Source: a virus (taxonomy: Duplodnaviria > Heunggongvirae > Uroviricota > Caudoviricetes). Taken from it: a stretch of 41,474 nt of DNA. The position numbers were made by a program, and so were the translations under genes. Position 1 is the stretch's first letter; each line of letters opens with the position of its first letter. Shown in pieces: positions 22,605-38,384 of this stretch. Location of the stretch: IMG/VR virus record IMGVR_UViG_2563366877_000003, positions 1-41,474 of that record; one strand, given 5' to 3'. Under the pieces are notes generated by a model. That model worked only from the letters and a program-made list of their open reading frames with translations. It was not told where the DNA came from and did no database searches.

Positions 22605-22847
22605 TTATGCTCCGGTAGTGAACAGGTCTAACGCTTCCTTCGATTTACGCACCGCTTCGATAGTGCGGGTCGTGATATCCGAATTAGCGCCGCCTGACTG
22701 GAAGTGAATTTTGAATAGCTCAAGCTTCAGTTCGTCAGTGCCAATGAACTGAAATGCTTCCTCTGCTGCTGCGTTCTGGTTCATGACCAGTTTGTAAATC
22801 TCTAACTGGAATTTCTGTTCTTCAGTCATGGGAATAATCTCTGCCAT
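22605..22847 (-). CDS. Hypothetical protein upstream of terminase
   Basis: ORF in track starts 22859; internal ATG 22847 has a GGAG at good spacing. No recognisable domain. Confidence 0.4.
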   Translation of the reverse strand: MAEIIPMTEEQKFQLEIYKLVMNQNAAAEEAFQFIGTDELKLELFKIHFQSGGANSDITTRTIEAVRKSKEALDLFTTGA

Positions 22848-22867
22848 TGTTGGCTCCATTTATCCGT

Positions 22868-22894
22868 TAAAAGGGATATCAGTTAAGTTATCCC
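22868..22894 (-). terminator. Hairpin plus short T-run
   Basis: Minus strand GGGATAACTTAACTGATATCCC followed by TTTT. Confidence 0.4.
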
Positions 22895-22950
22895 GTGTAG
22901 GGTATAAGCCATTATCAAAGCCACTCTGTAGGGAATGGCTTTTGTAATAA

Positions 22951-23331
22951 CTACTGTTCGCTTAGCTTCTGCTTCAGCAAGTAACCTTCGAGCATCCAGA
23001 TTTTGTTTACAGCATTCTGCCGGGCAATCTTCCGACCAATTTCTGCATCAAAATTTTCCGGACTTGCACAGGCACTCTCTCCGGTGACGGTGAAGCCATT
23101 CTTCAGTACCAATACGCAGAAAGTGAGCAACTTCAATGGTGATAAATCACGATCGCCTTCTTCTGGTTTTTCTCTGCCACAATATTCGTTGCTGGAAATG
23201 GCACCATTACGTCCATCATAAGCAGTAAAGTAATGCTCGCTTTTAATCACGTCTTCGATGTGCTGCGGAGTGATTCTCGGGGCGGTTTTGCCTTTCTCAA
23301 CGATTTCTTTTTCGATTTGCTGGTCGTTCAT
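22951..23331 (-). CDS. Phage protein of unknown function, possibly Gp49/Sf6 gp66 family
   Basis: 126-aa ORF between lysis genes and terminase; family assignment from memory only. Confidence 0.45.
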   Translation of the reverse strand: MNDQQIEKEIVEKGKTAPRITPQHIEDVIKSEHYFTAYDGRNGAISSNEYCGREKPEEGDRDLSPLKLLTFCVLVLKNGFTVTGESACASPENFDAEIGRKIARQNAVNKIWMLEGYLLKQKLSEQ

Positions 23332-23615
23332 AATTATGACCCTGTGGAGTGGTTGCTTGATTAGGATGTCTTTCCATCATTCCGCCACCACAAAGAATCT
23401 TTTTTGCCATAAGGCAGGAGGTTCATCTTTCAGTGGCTGCCAGTGTTATTTCCCCACTTTCTGGCTTGGGTTGTTTCGCTGTACTGCCGTTAATTGGTGG
23501 TGCACAGATTTAGTTAAATCTGTTCTCGCCTGAACTATCTTTTACATACCCGGATTGTGGGGATGTAAATCACGGTTTCATTATCAAGCCCACCCGTAGA
23601 TGGGCTTTGTAATGG

Positions 23616-23903
23616 CTACTTCTTCAGAAATGATTCGATGAATTCACGTCGAGGATGACGATAGTTCAGAATATCTTCTGGCATCCTCATAAAGCGGTTG
23701 TTGCCGTCTTTGGCAGTAACAAAACAGCTGTGAACTCCGCAGACATCCGTTTTGATTGTGTCGCTATACTCAAAAAGCAACTGAGCCATCTTCTCTTGCC
23801 ATTCTGGCGGCATAGCCTCCATGAATACTCGCGGCATCACGCAGAACGACGCATGCGTCAGGCCAAACCACAATTGCAGGTCTTTACGATATTCTTCATC
23901 CAT
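23616..23903 (-). CDS. Hypothetical protein
   Basis: 95-aa ORF downstream of Rz in the late operon; no recognisable motif. Confidence 0.45.
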   Translation of the reverse strand: MDEEYRKDLQLWFGLTHASFCVMPRVFMEAMPPEWQEKMAQLLFEYSDTIKTDVCGVHSCFVTAKDGNNRFMRMPEDILNYRHPRREFIESFLKK

Positions 23904-24121
23904 CGTCTTTACCTTTGTTGCAATAAAAAACCCCGCGAATGCGAGGCTAAATCCTGGTGTTTGTGATGACTGGCTCTTATCTCAACGCAGCCCCTTACCG
24001 CGCGCCAGATGCTCAATATCAAGCATCAGCAATGAGATGTTTAATCTGGATTTACTCCAGAAGTGATCACCACCCTGTCTACAGAGCCAGATGTGAAGGA
24101 TGATGAGTAGAATTATCGCTA

Positions 24122-24589
24122 TCATCGAAGGCATTGTGTCCTGATATATTCCTGAAGCGTTCTCAGTGCTGTTTGGTCGCGGATAATTCCGTCCCGGATA
24201 TCGAGAACGTTTCGTCCAGCAACTGGAGAGAGTTCGACGGAGGCATCATTGCCCATGCCGGAGGCGCTGGAGGTTTCGGCTGAGGATGGCATAGGGCATT
24301 TTCCTTTGACGAACACCCGACCACCATTATCAAGCTTGCGCCGAAGAGCATCATTTTCAGCTTTCGCATCAGCTAACTCCTTCGTGTATTTAGCATCGAG
24401 TGCATCAGCAGCACGCTGGCGTTGCTGCATGTCAGTAATGGTGGCAGTCGCCTGCTTCAGCTCACTGACTTTTTTATCGCGCTGCTCTTTGTAGGTCATG
24501 GCGTTATCACGGTAATGATTAACAGCCAATGACAGGCAGACGATGATGCAGATAACCAGAGCGGAGATAATCGCGGTGACTCTGCTCAT
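24122..24589 (-). CDS. Rz: Spanin inner-membrane subunit Rz
   Basis: 155 aa, [20 protein letters not shown]...AVNHYRDNA...[20 protein letters not shown] matches lambda Rz. Confidence 0.9.
24163..24369 (-). CDS. Rz1: Spanin outer-membrane lipoprotein Rz1 (embedded in Rz, +1 frame)
   Basis: ORF wholly inside Rz; lipobox VVGC and proline-rich PPAPPAW as in lambda Rz1. Confidence 0.8.
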
Positions 24590-25062
24590 ACCTCAATCTC
24601 TCTGACCGTTCCGCCAGCCTCTTTGAATTTTGCAATCAGGTTGTCAGCCTTATGCTCGAACTGACCATAACCAGCGCCCGGCAGTGAAGCCCAGATATTG
24701 CTGCAACGGTCGATAGCCTGACAAATATCACCGCGATCAATCATCGGTAAAGCGCCACGCTCTTTAATCTGTTGCAGTGCCACAGCGTCCTGGCTTTTCG
24801 GAGAGAAGTCTTTCAGGCCAAGCTGCTTGCGGTAGGCATCCCACCAACGGGAAAGAAGCTGGTAACGTCCGGCTGCTGTTGATTTGAGTTTTGGGTTTAG
24901 CGTGACAAGTTTGCGAGGGTGATCGGAGTAATCAGTGAATAGCTCTCCGCCTACAATGACGTCATAACCATGATTTCTGGTTTTCTGCCGTCCGTTATCA
25001 GTTCCCTCCGACCACGCCAGCATATCGAGGAACGCCTTACGTTGATTATTGATTTCCACCAT
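24586..25062 (-). CDS. R: Endolysin R (lytic transglycosylase)
   Basis: 158 aa, near-identical to recalled lambda R ([35 protein letters not shown]...). Confidence 0.95.
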
Positions 25063-25369
25063 CTTCTACTCCGGCTTTTTTAGCAGCGAAGCGTTTGATA
25101 AGCGAACCAATCGAGTCAGTGCCGATATAGCCGATGAACACGCTCGTTATATAAGCGAGATTGCTACTTAGTCCGGCGAAGTCGAGAAGGTCACGAATGA
25201 ACCAGGCGATAATGGCGCACATCGTTGCGTCGATTACTGTTTTTGTAAACGCACCGCCATTATATCTGCCGCGAAGGTACGCCATTGCAAACGCAAGGAT
25301 TGCCCCGATGCCTTGTTCCTTTGCCGCGAGAATGGCGGCTAACAGGTCATGTTTTTCTGGCATCTTCAT
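25046..25369 (-). CDS. S: Holin S (class I, dual start)
   Basis: 107 aa [22 protein letters not shown]..., lambda S with dual-start MKM; upstream CCCCTTCTGGGGG hairpin as in lambda. Confidence 0.95.
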
Positions 25370-29089: not shown

Positions 29090-29262
29090 TTCCTCGCACG
29101 ATTTCTTAGCCACCGGATATCCCACAGGTGAGCCGTGTAATTGAAGGTTTTTACGTCAGATTCTTTTGGAATTGGCTTGCGTTTATTTCTGGAGCGTTTC
29201 GTTGGAAGGTATTTGCAGTTTTCGCAGATTATGTCGGTGATACTTCGTCGCTGTCGCCTCAT
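29086..29262 (-). CDS. ninE: NinE
   Basis: Internal start [53 protein letters not shown] matches lambda NinE. Confidence 0.7.
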
Positions 29263-29786
29263 GCCGCTCTCCTGACGCCCTGCCCGATCGCCATCAATGC
29301 CGCTTTGGATACGGTAGTAAACATCCGTCGAGGACTGATGAACGGTCGCCAAATCAGCAGCATGGAGCCTTTGCTGTTTCCCTTCTTCTCCAACCCTGTC
29401 GATGGTTCGATAAAATTAATCCGTCCATCAGTGATAATGCGAACTTCGTCGACACTCTCCAGAGCCTTGCTGAACCATCCGACTGACATATCCTCTGGCA
29501 CAAGCATAACTACCGTCTGTCGCTGTTGTATGCACTGCTCAGCGGCTTTTTCCACCCACGGCCTGATATTGCTGTACGGTGGGTTATTCCAGATTGCACC
29601 GTGGCTTACCCACTCAGAATTGAGCGCGTCGTCGGCCTCAGTTAGCCAGTGAGCACACAGAGCATTTTTGTCGCTCGCTGCCGAATCCAGCCAGAATCCA
29701 AACTCAATATCCAGTGCATCAAAAAGCCAAAGCGGCGTTTGCCAGCAGTCCTTGTCGTGTGCTGGCGTATTTGATTTGATAGTCAT
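29259..29786 (-). CDS. DNA N6-adenine methyltransferase (phage Dam family)
   Basis: Catalytic NPPY motif (IWNNPPYSN); start at [25 protein letters not shown] with ATGA overlap to the upstream ORF. Confidence 0.8.
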
Positions 29787-30385
29787 GCAGCCCGATCTCC
29801 CCATCTCGCTTTCATTTTTTCATTTGCAAATCGCCAGAATCTTCCTTTGTGATATGAGCTTTCGCCATTACAGCAACGACTAATTGACGAACTATCAAAT
29901 CCTTCTCTGACAGCATCCATAGCTGCTTCATAATAAACCTCCTCCCCAGTTTTCATGTCAGTAGAAATAACAGCTTTACTGGCAGGATGGTCACCACTAA
30001 ATTTACCTAGCGATATAGGTATTCTTCCATTTTGTTTATATCCGTGTTTTGAGTTTTCAGAATGTGATACCCATTCAAGGTTATCAGCCCTATTGTCATC
30101 TCTTCGCCCATTTTTGTGATTAACTACCAAGCCATCACAGAACCCTGTACAGAATGCTTTCGCAACTATCCTGTGGGCGCTGTATTTCTTACCGTATACC
30201 TTTATTTGAAGATATCCTGTCGACTTGCACTTGAATGGTTTTACACTAGTGCCATTAATTATTTTCTTATATGGCCTCTGTCTGGTTGATGTTACTGTAA
30301 CTTCCCTCGTAATAGACCTAAAATTTCCTTTATTGCTAACCTGATAAAATGGAATCCCTTCGATATCTACCCAAACCTCAATCAT
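29783..30385 (-). CDS. HNH homing endonuclease (NUMOD4 N-terminus, HNH core)
   Basis: N-terminus EVWVDIEGIPFYQVSNKGNFRS (NUMOD4-like); HNH core VVNHKNGRRDDNRADNLEWVSHSEN; C-terminal HKGRFWRF motif. Last residues KARWGDRAA equal the recalled lambda NinB C-terminus. Confidence 0.8.
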   Translation of the reverse strand: MIEVWVDIEGIPFYQVSNKGNFRSITREVTVTSTRQRPYKKIINGTSVKPFKCKSTGYLQIKVYGKKYSAHRIVAKAFCTGFCDGLVVNHKNGRRDDNRADNLEWVSHSENSKHGYKQNGRIPISLGKFSGDHPASKAVISTDMKTGEEVYYEAAMDAVREGFDSSSISRCCNGESSYHKGRFWRFANEKMKARWGDRAA

Positions 30386-33981: not shown

Positions 33982-34668
33982 ATGGATAAATACGAACAAA
34001 GACGACTAAGGCTGATAGAGATAAGAGACCGATTCTGTAATGGAAAGGCCTCAGAGTTGGCTCGTCGAATAGAAAGGGAACCATCATACGTTTCCAGAAT
34101 GCTGTATCCGGAAGGAAAAAGCGGAAAAAAACGCATTGCTGACGATATGATGGAACTAATTGAAAAATCTTTTAATCTCCCACGCGGATGGATGGACATG
34201 CTTGCAGATGGTAAAGCTGGAGCTACAGACCATCTTGAGTTTGCGGGTAACGTTCGTGCGGGTTTTGTTCCGGTAATTGGTGAAGCCGTTTTGGGAGTTG
34301 ATGGCTCAGTGGATATGATTGAATTCAGATCCGGTTGGTTAAGCATCTACAGCGGCGATAAAGATGCTTACGGTCTGAAGGTTAAGGGTGACAGCATGTG
34401 GCCAAGGATTCAGTCAGGAGAATATGTTGTTATTGAACCAAATACGCCAGTACATCCAGGTGATGAAGTCTTTGTAAGGACCAAAGACGGTCACAACATG
34501 ATAAAGATCATGAACAAAACAAGAGACGGTGATTATCAGTTTAGTAGCATAAACAGTGATCACCGCCCAATCACTCTTCCTGTTGAAGAAGTTGATAAAA
34601 TGCATTTTGTTTCAGCTATTGTGAAACACACCAGGTACGTAGACCAGGACGATCTGCCAAAAGTTTGA
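33982..34668 (+). CDS. cI: CI-type prophage repressor (HTH plus S24 LexA-like autopeptidase domain)
   Basis: 228 aa; C-terminal S24 domain with GDSMWP serine and downstream lysine; N-terminal HTH; divergent from cro. Confidence 0.9.
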   Translation: MDKYEQRRLRLIEIRDRFCNGKASELARRIEREPSYVSRMLYPEGKSGKKRIADDMMELIEKSFNLPRGWMDMLADGKAGATDHLEFAGNVRAGFVPVIGEAVLGVDGSVDMIEFRSGWLSIYSGDKDAYGLKVKGDSMWPRIQSGEYVVIEPNTPVHPGDEVFVRTKDGHNMIKIMNKTRDGDYQFSSINSDHRPITLPVEEVDKMHFVSAIVKHTRYVDQDDLPKV

Positions 34669-34979
34669 GGATAAAGCAGCAAGTGTTTATACCCGGCATA
34701 GTAGTCGCTGTTGTAATCATCTGCTTCATATGGGCAAAGTTATCTCCTGTAAGCTCTAAGCATACAGCTGAACTCATGAAGAAGAAGCATCTTATACATG
34801 AGGCAGAATCGATAATTAAAAAGTTCAAAGGCATGTCATACGACGACATGTCATCAGAGCAGATTGCTATGTATAAATGCGCCATTGAGCGTCTTGACTA
34901 CTTAAACGGACTCAAACCCAAACACACCCCAGTAGAATCAAAATTGCCGCAATGGCCAAGCAATCCAAATAGCTTCTGA
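34665..34979 (+). CDS. Small single-pass membrane protein apparently co-transcribed with cI (rex/sie position)
   Basis: 104-codon ORF beginning with TTG overlapping the cI stop (TTGA), or GTG at 34683; hydrophobic segment FIPGIVVAVVIICFIWA then charged domain; followed by a terminator. Confidence 0.4.
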   Translation: MRIKQQVFIPGIVVAVVIICFIWAKLSPVSSKHTAELMKKKHLIHEAESIIKKFKGMSYDDMSSEQIAMYKCAIERLDYLNGLKPKHTPVESKLPQWPSNPNSF

Positions 34980-34990
34980 CATCTCCTTTC

Positions 34991-35013
34991 AGCCCGCAAA
35001 GCGGGCTTTTTTA
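34991..35013 (+). terminator. Intrinsic terminator ending the cI transcript
   Basis: AGCCCGC-AAA-GCGGGCT followed by TTTTTTAT. Confidence 0.65.
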
Positions 35014-35032
35014 TATCAATCCAAAAAATTAA

Positions 35033-35115
35033 TTACCTGAAAATTCAAGCAGGTAAACTCTTACATCAATTTTATTTACCTACAGGTATAGACAGCTGTT
35101 TTACCTGTAGGTATA
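35033..35115. promoter_or_regulatory. Left operator region (OL)
   Basis: TTTACCTACAGGTATA (35075..35090) and TTTACCTGTAGGTATA (35100..35115), plus TTACCTG-N10-CAGGTAA (35033..35056); same half-site as OR. Confidence 0.6.
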
Positions 35116-35125
35116 TTTTAGGCCA
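35089..35125 (+). promoter_or_regulatory. Early leftward promoter pL
   Basis: TAGACA (35089..35094), 17-bp spacer, TATATT (35112..35117); sequence from about 35125 (ATCAGCAGGACGCACTGACC) matches the lambda pL transcript start. Confidence 0.6.
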
Positions 35126-35157
35126 TCAGCAGGACGCACTGACCACCATGAAGGTGA

Positions 35158-35188
35158 TGCTCTTAAAAATTAAGCCCTGAAGAAGGGC
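35158..35188 (+). promoter_or_regulatory. nutL site (boxA and boxB)
   Basis: boxA TGCTCTTAA (35158..35166) and boxB hairpin GCCCTGAAGAAGGGC (35174..35188), as in lambda nutL. Confidence 0.8.
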
Positions 35189-35345
35189 AGCATTCAAAGC
35201 AGAAGGCTTTGGTGTGTGTGATACGAAACGAAGCATTGGCCGGAAGTGCGAATCCGGATTAGCTGTCAATGTGCCATTGCTGGGTGTTTTCGTTCAGGAC
35301 TACGACTCCCACACACAACCAAAGCTAACTGACAGGAGAATCCAG

Positions 35346-35672
35346 ATGGATGCACAAACACGCCGCCGCGAACGTCGCGCAGAGAAACAGGCTCAATGGA
35401 AAGCAGCAAATCCCCTGTTGGTTGGGGTAAGCGCAAAACCAGTTAACCGCCCTATTCTCTCGCTGAATCGCAAACCGAAATCACGAGTAGAAAGCGCACT
35501 GAATCCGATAGACCTTACAGTGCTGGCTGAATACCACGAACAGATTGAAAGCAACCTGCAACGTATTGAGCGCAAGAATCAGCGCACATGGTACAGCAAG
35601 CCACGCAGTGAAATGGGTGTGACTTGTGTTGGTCGCCAGAAAATGAAATTAGGCAGCAAGCCACTTATTTGA
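35346..35672 (+). CDS. N: Antiterminator N
   Basis: From internal ATG 35346: MDAQTRRRERRAEKQAQWKAANPLLVGVSAKPVNRPILSLNRKPKSRVESALNPIDLTVLAEYH..., matches lambda N; the ORF-track start is a GTG extension. Confidence 0.9.
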   Translation: MDAQTRRRERRAEKQAQWKAANPLLVGVSAKPVNRPILSLNRKPKSRVESALNPIDLTVLAEYHEQIESNLQRIERKNQRTWYSKPRSEMGVTCVGRQKMKLGSKPLI

Positions 35673-35683
35673 GAGGAATTAAT

Positions 35684-36307
35684 ATGTCATCAATCCGCTT
35701 AACTACGAGAATGAAAGAGGAAATCGCTCGTAACGCTTTAATTAAGTCTGGGGTTTTCACTGAACTTGAAGAAGTAACAAAGTTAAAGAACCAGCTTGCA
35801 CTTGACGCCAGAGTTATTGCGTTTGGCGGTAAAAAGAAAACTGAGGAAGTGGATCAGTTATCATCTAAGTTTGTAGCTATAAGTGAAGAACTTGAAAAGA
35901 TGGGATGTTCATTTTACTCATACGATTTTCGTTCTACTTCAATTTATCTGACTGTATCTGGCAGAAGGGTTGGATGGCATTCATATGGGAAAGACGGCAA
36001 CGGCGAAGATATATTTCTCCCTACTCCAACCAAAGATAAATGCATGTTTGACGCAGAACACGAAATAACAAAAAGGTTTGATGAAATCTGCGCATTGCAA
36101 CAAAAACTTGAAGCCAAGAAAAAGGATATCGAATCAAATGTATGGGCTGCTTTAAACTCAGTCACAACAGTTAAGCGACTCATTGAAGTTTGGCCTGAAA
36201 GCAAAGAATTGCTACCAAAAGAAGCAGATAAAGCAAGTACAGCACTTCCTGCTTTACGGGTAGAGGATTTGAATAAGATGATTGGACTTCCTTCCGAGGC
36301 CGCATAG
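35684..36307 (+). CDS. Hypothetical early-left protein immediately downstream of N
   Basis: 207 aa from ATG 35684 with GAGAGGA upstream; soluble, Lys/Glu-rich; no recognised motif. Confidence 0.5.
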   Translation: MSSIRLTTRMKEEIARNALIKSGVFTELEEVTKLKNQLALDARVIAFGGKKKTEEVDQLSSKFVAISEELEKMGCSFYSYDFRSTSIYLTVSGRRVGWHSYGKDGNGEDIFLPTPTKDKCMFDAEHEITKRFDEICALQQKLEAKKKDIESNVWAALNSVTTVKRLIEVWPESKELLPKEADKASTALPALRVEDLNKMIGLPSEAA

Positions 36308-36323
36308 TCGGCCTTTATTTTTG
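36297..36323 (+). terminator. Intrinsic terminator (tL1-like)
   Basis: AGGCCG-CATAGT-CGGCCT followed by TTATTTTTGG. Confidence 0.6.
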
Positions 36324-36441
36324 GCATAAACAACAGAATAAACACAGCACTGTGTATTCATTCCAACGAGTGAATACACGGAGCAATGTCGCTCGTAACT
36401 AAACAGGAGCCGACTTGTTCTGATTATTGGAAATCTTCTTT

Positions 36442-36468
36442 GCCCTCCGATGTGAGGGCAATTTTTTT
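36442..36468 (+). terminator. Intrinsic terminator
   Basis: GCCCTC-CGATGT-GAGGGC followed by AATTTTTTT, just before the next gene's GGAGG and ATG. Confidence 0.6.
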
Positions 36469-36480
36469 GACGGAGGATAT

Positions 36481-36792
36481 ATGAAATTACGTGTCTGGCA
36501 TATCCCGCAAGTACCTATGAAGCCGTTCATTGTAGAAGTGGCAAGTGTTGAAGAGGGTGTTCGCCTGATGGACGCACTGGCTGATTATGATGCCTTTCAG
36601 TATGACAACAACATCAAGCCTGACTACTGCAATGCTAACGGCCTTGAGATGTGGGATGAGAGCCTTACTGATGAAGATTTATCAGAGATGGGGCTTACGG
36701 ATCGCTGGGTAGATTGGTACAGCGAATGCCAATGTTACGACGACCCACGTAAATATCTCGAAAGCCTGAAAGAAGAAACATCAGCCGCCTAA
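36481..36792 (+). CDS. Small acidic hypothetical protein
   Basis: 103 aa from ATG 36481 (MKLRVWHIPQVPMKPF...), GGAGG upstream; rich in Asp/Glu. Confidence 0.5.
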   Translation: MKLRVWHIPQVPMKPFIVEVASVEEGVRLMDALADYDAFQYDNNIKPDYCNANGLEMWDESLTDEDLSEMGLTDRWVDWYSECQCYDDPRKYLESLKEETSAA

Positions 36793-36867
36793 GCGCGGCT
36801 TTACCGCATACCAATAACGCTTCACTCGAGGCGTTTTCGTTATGCAATCAAATATAAGGAGTTACCC

Positions 36868-37002
36868 ATGATGCACTTTCAGCTCGCGGGTAGCGGCGTC
36901 ATGTCCGCTTTCTACCCGCACGAATCTGAATTATCACGCCGAGTTAAACAATTAATCAGAGCAGCAAAGAAACAACTGGAGGCGTTATGCGCAATGAAAT
37001 AG
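36868..37002 (+). CDS. cIII: CIII-like small protein (FtsH inhibitor family)
   Basis: 44 codons MMHFQLAGSGVMSAFYPHESELSRRVKQLIRAAKKQL..., AAGGAG 6 nt upstream; resembles lambda CIII (MQYAIAGWPVAGCPSESLLERITRKLRDGW). Below ORF-track cutoff. Confidence 0.5.
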   Translation: MMHFQLAGSGVMSAFYPHESELSRRVKQLIRAAKKQLEALCAMK

Positions 37003-37139
37003 CCATCAATCACCAGATGCTTCGTGCAGCACAAAACAAAGCAGTAATAGCCAGATTTATTGGTGATTCAAAAATGTGGCTTGAAGCAAATAAAGCGATG
37101 AAATCAGCTATCAACCTTCCGTGGTATCGCAGGAAATGA
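36987..37139 (+). CDS. Kil-like small protein
   Basis: 50 codons, GGAGG upstream; IARFIGDSKMW resembles what I recall of lambda Kil; position after cIII fits. Confidence 0.4.
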   Translation: MRNEIAINHQMLRAAQNKAVIARFIGDSKMWLEANKAMKSAINLPWYRRK

Positions 37140-37294
37140 GTTTTACAGATAACTGGTCAGACGAAGAATTCATTCGTCAGATGAAAGAATTAATCGGTAA
37201 CGAAGGAGATATTCATGTCACTTGCAACCACAGTGAAGGAGAGCAAGTTACAGAGACGCATGTACACGCAGAAAGCTCTCTGGTATCGCCATAA
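37136..37294 (+). CDS. Small acidic hypothetical ORF
   Basis: 52 codons with ATGA overlap to the previous ORF. Confidence 0.25.
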   Translation: MSFTDNWSDEEFIRQMKELIGNEGDIHVTCNHSEGEQVTETHVHAESSLVSP

Positions 37295-37395
37295 TGGTGA
37301 CCGCGAAGGAATGCGGGTATGCCTTAATTTGTCCCGAGTCGAAGTATTAAATCAGCGTTATTTCCTTGGGCCGTGTCCATTCTGAGAACAATCAT

Positions 37396-38001
37396 ATGAG
37401 CAAAGAATTTTACGCAAGACTGGCAGCTATTCAGGAGAATCTGAACGCGCCAAAGAATCAGTACAACTCATTCGGCAAATATAAATACAGAAGCTGCGAA
37501 GATATTCTTGAAGGCGTTAAGCCGTTACTGAATGGTCTGTTTTTATCAATCAGCGATGAAGTTGTGTTGATTGGTGATCGGTATTACGTGAAAGCCACGG
37601 CAACTATTACCGATGGCGAAAACAGTCATACGGCAACCGCCCTTGCACGAGAGGAAGAAAGCAAGAAAGGAATGGATTCTGCACAAGTTACTGGAGCTAC
37701 AAGCTCTTATGCACGCAAGTATTGCCTCAATGGTTTGTTCGGCATAGATGATGCGAAAGATGCAGATACAGACGAGCATAAACATCAGCAGAACGCAGCA
37801 GCAAAGCAATCAAAACCATCACCTACACCTGAACAGGTTCTAAAAGCATTCACTGACGCAGCATTGCAGAAAAACACCGTGGAAGAGCTTAAACAGGCGT
37901 TCGCCAAAGCGTGGAAGATGCTCGAAGGCACACCGGAGCAGCACAAAGCGCAGGACGTTTACAACATCAGACGAGACGAATTAGAAGGAGCGGCTGCTTA
38001 A
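37396..38001 (+). CDS. erf: Erf single-strand annealing recombinase
   Basis: From ATG 37396: MSKEFYARLAAIQENLNAPKNQYNSFGKYKYRSCEDILEGVKPLL..., closely matches recalled P22 Erf. Confidence 0.85.
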   Translation: MSKEFYARLAAIQENLNAPKNQYNSFGKYKYRSCEDILEGVKPLLNGLFLSISDEVVLIGDRYYVKATATITDGENSHTATALAREEESKKGMDSAQVTGATSSYARKYCLNGLFGIDDAKDADTDEHKHQQNAAAKQSKPSPTPEQVLKAFTDAALQKNTVEELKQAFAKAWKMLEGTPEQHKAQDVYNIRRDELEGAAA

Positions 38002-38384
38002 TGGCACATTCGATTACTGTAAGACTAAACAAGCCCGCAAGAGAGTTTCAGGCCGGGGAAAATATCGGATTCAACATCCGTGCTGGCGTTCAGTATTACG
38101 ATCGCCAGACAAAAAAGAAAGAATGGACAAACTACAGAGCCGTTGTATTTGCCAAGCCGGGAGCGCAAGCGGATTACTACCGTAGCGTTCTTGTTGAAGG
38201 TGGCATTGTTGAAATTACCGGAGAAAACATCAGGGTTGATGTTTATCAGGGGCAAAATGGTCAATCAATCACTCTTGAATTACTGAATTCAAAGATTGGA
38301 TTTGCAACTTCAGGAAACAGCCAACAGCAACAAAGCAGTAACCAGCAGAACACTCCTGTATACGACGATTCCATCCCATTCTGA
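38001..38384 (+). CDS. SSB-like single-stranded DNA-binding protein
   Basis: 127 aa, start overlaps erf stop (TAATG); Gln-rich linker and C-terminal DDSIPF, the acidic tail typical of bacterial SSB. Confidence 0.6.
   Translation: MAHSITVRLNKPAREFQAGENIGFNIRAGVQYYDRQTKKKEWTNYRAVVFAKPGAQADYYRSVLVEGGIVEITGENIRVDVYQGQNGQSITLELLNSKIGFATSGNSQQQQSSNQQNTPVYDDSIPF

Follow-up and report, generated by a model that had tools for sequence, protein, structure and literature searches.

The IMG/VR virus record IMGVR_UViG_2563366877_000003, analysed here over its whole length of 41,474 nucleotides (nt) and referred to below as the window, is a P22-like/lambdoid prophage of Escherichia coli whose early-left operon, read from the pL promoter, lies on the + strand. 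Directly behind the gene for a lambda-type antitermination protein N, this operon carries two genes that are the subject of this report: ORF-A (open reading frame A; 35684–36307, + strand), which begins with ATG and specifies 207 amino acids (aa), and ORF-B (36481–36792, + strand), which likewise begins with ATG and specifies an acidic protein of 103 aa. An earlier, sequence-only reading of this DNA had placed the two genes at these positions, which we confirmed, and had pointed out that in lambdoid phages the first genes behind N often have anti-restriction or host-takeover functions. That argument from position also holds, the two genes being at the head of the pL operon, where P22 has sieB, ral, orf78, orf87 and 17. 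It had further stated that the two proteins match nothing recognizable, and in this it was mistaken: ORF-A is a member of the Nmad5 family and ORF-B is an orthologue of P22 gene 17. The full-length agreement of each with a large conserved protein family leads us to conclude that both are real genes.

ORF-B, which has GGAGG upstream, matched the Pfam profile PF17420 (GP17) at positions 1–98 of 98 (7.3e-56, 186.8 bits against a cut-off of 25) and PHROG 1510 at 5.7e-58. Its product is 88.3% identical to P22 gp17 over 103/103 aa (NP_059600; X15637, NC_002371), and about 420 nt of DNA (36381–36802) match the gene 17 segment of P22 at 81.7%, the P22 assignment having been made by coordinates that match gene 17. 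The likeness extends to the surroundings of the gene. In both phages it lies directly upstream of c3 (cIII) and kil in the pL operon, so that the order 17-c3-kil is common to the two (in the window, cIII at 36868–37002, + strand, Pfam cIII 2e-30, and kil at 36987–37139, + strand, Pfam Lambda_Kil 1.7e-20); roughly 100 nt of upstream sequence are also shared, as is a hairpin at the stop codon, which in P22 is annotated as a terminator. The two phages differ in host, which is Salmonella for P22 and E. coli here, and in what lies between N and 17, namely Nmad5 in the window and sieB/esc, ral, orf78 and orf87 in P22.

The RefSeq record of P22 describes gene 17 with the words "allows growth on phage Fels2 lysogen". 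PMC6486243, citing Semerjian et al. 1989, likewise states that gene 17 is needed for growth on a Fels-2 lysogen. As the orthologue of a genetically defined counter-exclusion factor, ORF-B would have the same phenotype, and we propose that it would neutralize an exclusion or abortive-infection function of a resident P2-like (Fels-2-type) prophage. The name that the protein bears in databases (the annotation pipeline PGAP and PHROG) is superinfection exclusion protein. Since the gene 17 product counteracts exclusion, this name is a misnomer and states the phenotype, which is escape from exclusion, backwards; attached to gene 17 homologues, the label misleads and propagates through annotations. 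With regard to ORF-B being an exclusion or defence protein in its own right, we obtained no PADLOC match for it, and two terminators separate its gene from the promoter of the repressed pL operon. PADLOC likewise had no match for ORF-A, NCBIfam gave nothing significant, and a sequence search of the PDB with ORF-A and ORF-B yielded nothing meaningful. An anti-defence role, at which the sequence-only reading had hinted for genes in this position, is thus upheld by homology for ORF-B, through the Fels-2 escape, and not for ORF-A, for which we found no anti-defence evidence.

Homologues of gp17 that are 50–98% identical occur in temperate P22-like and lambdoid phages as well as in virulent N4-like phages (N4 gp18) and Vi01-like myophages. 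Homologues are also found in phages of Klebsiella, Serratia and Pectobacterium and in metagenomes, and Bacillus phage SBSphiC carries a more distant copy (41% identity). Some homologues are longer (133–171 aa); we considered whether these contain informative fusions and rejected the idea, as their N-terminal extensions look by eye like start-codon miscalls or read-through. The invariant residues of the family (P9, Q10, F16, L33, Y36, D37, F39, Q40, K46, D48, Y49, N51, W76 and W79) are mostly aromatic or polar and include two Asp, and W+Y+F account for 12.7% of residues. An AlphaFold2 model of ORF-B, predicted with a mean confidence (pLDDT) of 92.2, shows a compact alpha/beta fold that has no structural match, known DNA mimics and sponges included.

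These data bear on the suggestion, made as speculation from the small size and acidity of the protein, that ORF-B is a DNA mimic. On this view its acidic surface would imitate the DNA backbone and so block a DNA-binding defence of the nuclease type, for instance a restriction enzyme or a RecBCD-like complex. ORF-B is indeed strongly acidic (pI 4.14; 23 D+E versus 9 K+R; net charge −14), its acidity is conserved in the family (median net charge −14), and its gene occupies the early operon slot that holds ral in P22 and lambda. In being small and strongly acidic it also resembles T7 Ocr and ArdA. However, neither sequence nor fold matches these proteins, the confidently modelled compact alpha/beta fold resembles no known mimic, and most of the conserved residues are non-acidic; the most acidic stretch (residues 57–72) is variable and often deleted. 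This conservation pattern points to a specific binding patch more readily than to a DNA mimic, and we consider mimicry quite unlikely. Ral itself, which classically fills the slot behind N in lambda and P22, resembles ORF-A and ORF-B in being an early accessory product of the pL operon that is encoded between N and cIII/kil; in sequence, the only significant Pfam matches of the two proteins are Nmad5 and GP17, with none to Ral or another anti-restriction family, and the stretch from N to cIII showed no orthologue of ral.

Having assigned ORF-B to gene 17, we looked in Fels-2 for a function that it might counteract. The Fels-2 genome (NC_010463) contains a cargo hotspot at 22639–25335, after the portal gene and before the replication genes, which carries STM2723.1 and STM2726, the latter encoding a 243-aa protein with no family match. 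STM2723.1 matched the PADLOC model for AbiU (2.7e-112) and Pfam AIPR (8.8e-43) and was the sole defence-model match among four Fels-2 cargo ORFs that we tested, the other three having none; the occurrence of abiU in Fels-2 has been noted in a Salmonella genomics paper (PMC3853940). STM2723.1 and STM2726 may act as a two-gene system. Because the AbiU/AIPR protein is the only defence match among these four ORFs, we propose it as the exclusion function that gp17 neutralizes, and it is the most likely candidate for the target of ORF-B. ORF-B would bind the defence protein directly, using a conserved aromatic/polar patch made up of the end of helix 1, the KPDYCN loop and W76/W79. The conservation of gp17 can be read in another way: its invariant aromatic, Lys, Asn and Gln residues form a cluster that might line a ligand pocket, and conservation is unusually high across phages of Enterobacteria, metagenomes and a Bacillus phage, so that ORF-B might instead bind a conserved small molecule or host factor, for example as a "sponge" for an immune signalling nucleotide. 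Yet the fold has no similarity to known sponges, and no Fels-2 cargo gene that we tested matched a signalling-type defence model, AbiU/AIPR being the only match; we regard this alternative as improbable, to about the same degree as DNA mimicry.

Turning to ORF-A, the gene starts 12 nt past the stop codon of N, is preceded by the Shine-Dalgarno sequence GAGAGGAA, and matched Pfam PF18757 at positions 1–206 of 206 (3.2e-72, 243.4 bits against a curated cut-off of 27) and PHROG 1965, a group of unknown function, at 9.6e-84. In E. coli genomes PGAP labels it "Nmad5 family putative nucleotide modification protein". ORF-A is 95–98% identical to the copies in HK542, mEp235 and Stx phages, and members of its family include HK542c102, the proteins of mEp235 and of Stx1/Stx2 phages, Kapi1_018, YuA gp15 and Dhillonvirus SM_A8 CDS7. 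A profile search showed the Nmad5 family to consist of 2290 representative clusters, nearly all of them single-domain proteins of ~200 aa. The AlphaFold2 model of ORF-A (pLDDT 84.9) consists of three long helices, a small beta domain (residues 86–125), a short helical region, a disordered linker and a conserved C-terminal helix. Foldseek comparison with BFVD returned E-values from 5e-13 to 6e-4 and a top TM-score of 0.75; above noise all matches were phage proteins, several of them annotated as Nmad5 and none of known function, so that the predicted fold agrees with that of other family members. An antisense ORF within the Nmad5 gene (35944–36345, − strand, 133 aa; HK542c101 in HK542) is probably spurious, its open frame shrinking from 120 to 63–74 codons in diverged homologues.

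Conservation across 147 Nmad5 sequences (median identity to the window protein, 29%) is highest at residues 161–203, and the best-conserved positions are R5, R43, G48, G93, T162, L166, W170, P171, E172, E175, L176, P178, L196, N197 and G201. The C-terminal part of ORF-A contains a highly conserved module of the form T-x-KR-L-x3-WPE-x2-EL-x-P ... LP-x6-LN-x3-GLP. No catalytic set of His, Cys or Asp is conserved across these sequences, and ORF-A showed neither an enzyme-like fold nor a catalytic motif. Most likely, then, ORF-A is here an adaptor and not a nucleotide-modifying enzyme; it would be a non-enzymatic protein that docks onto a host factor or onto machinery that replicates, recombines or modifies DNA.

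Gene neighbourhoods are relevant to this choice. The family owes its name to members that sit in the thymidine-hypermodification cassettes of M6/YuA/SN1-like phages. If ORF-A acted in nucleotide or DNA modification, as the name implies, a modified base in the phage DNA could evade restriction, and there is indeed a gene for a Dam-type methyltransferase in another part of the window (29262–29804). However, Pfam scans of 20 non-structural ORFs found no hydroxymethylase, 5-hydroxymethyldeoxyuridine kinase or aGPT-Pplase in the window, so that ORF-A lacks the nucleotide-modification neighbours of the YuA, M6 and SN1 proteins. Most Nmad5 members, moreover, stand alone, in a replication/recombination or a pL setting. 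The N4-like phage SP-058 has the gene between ThyX and an exonuclease/primase/Sak4/SSB group, a Vibrio phage has it next to a replication initiator, and prophages of Klebsiella and Providencia have it as the first gene past the repressor on the pL side. A nucleotide-modification neighbourhood is accordingly a trait of some Nmad5 members rather than a criterion of membership and, together with the lack of an enzyme-like fold and of conserved catalytic residues, this makes a modifying role for ORF-A very improbable. Directly 3' of the Nmad5 gene, the Klebsiella, Providencia and Vibrio phages have a very small ORF (36–62 aa).

The sole experimental report on the family concerns the nmad5 gene of a Dhillonvirus, in which a K-to-E change led to escape from the Tmn (KAP NTPase) defence and which was reported to be toxic to clone. 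The Dhillonvirus protein and ORF-A have only the C-terminal half in common (residues 103–203, 33% identity), and the changed residue aligns with R165 of ORF-A, inside the most conserved motif of the family. One could accordingly suppose that ORF-A itself counters host defences or serves host takeover as soon as infection begins, a role that would suit the first gene past N, ahead of any terminator, and the first pL-side position of Nmad5 in diverse prophages, as well as the toxicity and the escape mutation of the homologue. Against this, deletion of the Dhillonvirus gene had no effect on Tmn sensitivity, ORF-A has no PADLOC or other functional match, and in virulent phages the gene is placed within replication modules. 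We therefore hold such a role to be possible but doubtful and favour the non-enzymatic adaptor.

When the two genes would be expressed depends on the terminators between them. A terminator scan found 6 sites, compared with 2.8 +/- 1.7 in shuffled sequences. The first after pL is a terminator-like hairpin at 36296–36315 (+ strand, with its tail to 36324; −11.0 kcal/mol, followed by UAUUUUU), which overlaps the stop codon of ORF-A. The second, at 36440–36461 (+ strand, to 36468), has an 8-bp stem and seven U (−13.2 kcal/mol) and lies just 5' of the ribosome-binding site of ORF-B. Behind ORF-B, one hairpin overlaps the stop codon (36783–36800, + strand; −10.4 kcal/mol, with a poor U tract) at the place that matches the annotated P22 terminator, and another follows at 36816–36835 (+ strand; −9.9 kcal/mol, then UUUCGUUAU). 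The view that each gene is followed by an intrinsic terminator consequently needs qualifying, the terminators being clear after ORF-A and weaker after ORF-B. No terminator turned up in the scan between N and ORF-A, so that ORF-A is probably an immediate-early gene, transcribed together with N and independently of it. ORF-B, which lies behind two terminators, should come only from the N-antiterminated pL transcript, and it and all genes downstream would need N.

The two terminators belong to a non-coding linker of ~160 nt (36308 to ~36465), which also contains a 14-bp hairpin at 36350–36381 (+ strand; −23.0 kcal/mol for the 53-nt stretch 36340–36392 that contains the stem). The linker follows Nmad5 in 68–80 of 80 Nmad5 loci from E. 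coli viral contigs, conservation falling beyond it, and its part from 36381 on is also found upstream of gene 17 in P22, again with P22 assigned by coordinates. A search of Rfam with 34600–37500 gave nothing at or near gathering scores. The linker looks like the recombination "boundary sequences" that are marked in the annotation of HK542 and other wild lambdoid phages; alternatively it is possibly a processed 3' untranslated region or a small RNA. Both genes end in Ala-Ala codons that fall within terminator stems (GCC GCA TAG at 36296–36307 in ORF-A; GCC GCC TAA at 36783–36792 in ORF-B), and such -AA C-termini are enriched among homologues (20/54 close Nmad5 homologues and 31/115 gp17 homologues). 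We considered a ClpX-type degron and set it aside, since Ala codons that form GC-rich terminator stems over stop codons are a simpler account.

Several lines of evidence indicate that ORF-A and ORF-B are independent mosaic modules. Gene 17 is present in only 3 of the 80 E. coli viral contigs that carry Nmad5, which led us to reject a functional pairing of the two proteins. Downstream of Nmad5, these loci have one of 40 ORF variants, which include more than 12 clearly unrelated proteins, and upstream they have many N alleles or other small ORFs. The N alleles differ in their arginine-rich N-termini and share the last ~25 residues (RKPRSEMGVTCVGRQKMKLGSKPLI; 35592–35672 in the window), which places a mosaic junction inside the 3' end of N and implies that the tail of N moves with the Nmad5 module. 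Among 5426 complete E. coli genomes searched at the megablast level, ORF-A occurred in 211 (~4%) and ORF-B in 135 (~2.5%). One IMG/VR contig is 99–100% identical to the window at the protein level in every gene from cI through ssb.

Taken together, we read the locus as two accessory modules of the pL operon, independent of each other and both catalogued before, in which ORF-B would act in counter-exclusion via AbiU/AIPR and ORF-A as a non-enzymatic, immediate-early adaptor, and we give this reading a probability of about 0.6. It builds on the identity of the genes, their family membership, synteny and modularity, and the structural models. From these we infer the target and binding mode of ORF-B, the timing of expression and the role of Nmad5. 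Several points weigh against it. Our literature search found no link between AbiU and P22, and no experiment ties gp17 to AbiU; other Fels-2 genes, such as STM2726 or unannotated functions, could be responsible for exclusion. At the DNA level, a Fels-2-like abiU occurs in only 7 of the 5426 complete E. coli genomes, compared with 135 for gene 17, so that in E. coli gp17 may act on a diverged AIPR protein or on another target altogether. A conserved host target or small-molecule ligand could instead account for the very strong conservation that gp17 shows among unrelated phages. With respect to ORF-A, the adaptor idea draws solely on the lack of enzyme-like features and on gene neighbourhoods, and the result of the Dhillonvirus nmad5 deletion makes even the Tmn link indirect. 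The timing of expression proposed for both genes is read from predicted terminators only. The AIPR genes in the 7 E. coli genomes are near-identical to the Fels-2 copy.

A bolder version of these ideas, which we think unlikely, would make the gp17 family a broad inhibitor of the AbiU/AIPR abortive-infection proteins of P2-like hotspots and Nmad5 an immediate-early factor whose KR-L-x3-WPE surface triggers KAP-NTPase (Tmn-like) defences. As sequence features ORF-A and ORF-B are ordinary, and both are already named by PGAP in E. coli genomes; as candidates for anti-defence screens both genes are of modest interest. Our literature search on PF18757, PF17420 and gene 17 together with Fels found no mechanistic work. 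What the analysis adds is chiefly the AbiU/AIPR candidate for gp17, the probable immediate-early placement of Nmad5, and the mapping of the Tmn-escape residue to the conserved C-terminal module. Gene 17 is defined genetically, and the Fels-2 AbiU/AIPR protein gives it a concrete candidate target; were gp17 to inhibit that protein, this would be a molecular account of a decades-old observation on P22 and Fels-2 and the first known anti-AbiU protein. Nmad5, for its part, is a very large phage-specific family, found here in what would be the position most favoured for expression in a lambdoid phage.

The remainder of the early-left operon upstream of the two genes is arranged as follows. A cI-like S24 repressor (33982–34668) precedes a pL-like promoter, TAGACA-17-TATATT (35089–35117, + strand; 10/12 matches in a promoter scan), which two operator-like palindromes recognized by eye, TACCTnnAGGTA, overlap. 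A putative nutL site (35158–35188, + strand) contains a boxA-like TGCTCTTA and a boxB, GCCCTGAAGAAGGGC, which matches that of lambda. HK542 shares the nutL segment at 98% identity and has annotated nutL boxA/boxB between pL and N, at the matching relative position. The N protein itself (35346–35672, + strand) has 108 aa and matched Pfam N36 (1.5e-26) and PHROG 271.

Three further features of the window lie outside this argument. Between the repressor and pL, a 104-aa ORF (34665–35007) with a single transmembrane segment and no Pfam match has a TTG start that overlaps the cI stop codon and is followed by a strong terminator (34991–35007; −12.6 kcal/mol). It occupies the prophage-expressed "moron" slot, which in lambda holds rex and in HK542 two unrelated ORFs, and its product could serve the lysogen, where it would be expressed, in exclusion or defence. 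In the nin region, an HNH/NUMOD4 homing-endonuclease-like ORF (29786–30385, − strand) adjoins the Dam-type methyltransferase gene mentioned above, which is an N6-adenine methyltransferase gene on the − strand. Finally, between erf and abc2, a 127-aa ORF (38001–38384) with no Pfam match ends in DDSIPF, a C-terminal tail of the type found in single-stranded DNA-binding proteins (SSB), and is probably a divergent phage SSB.
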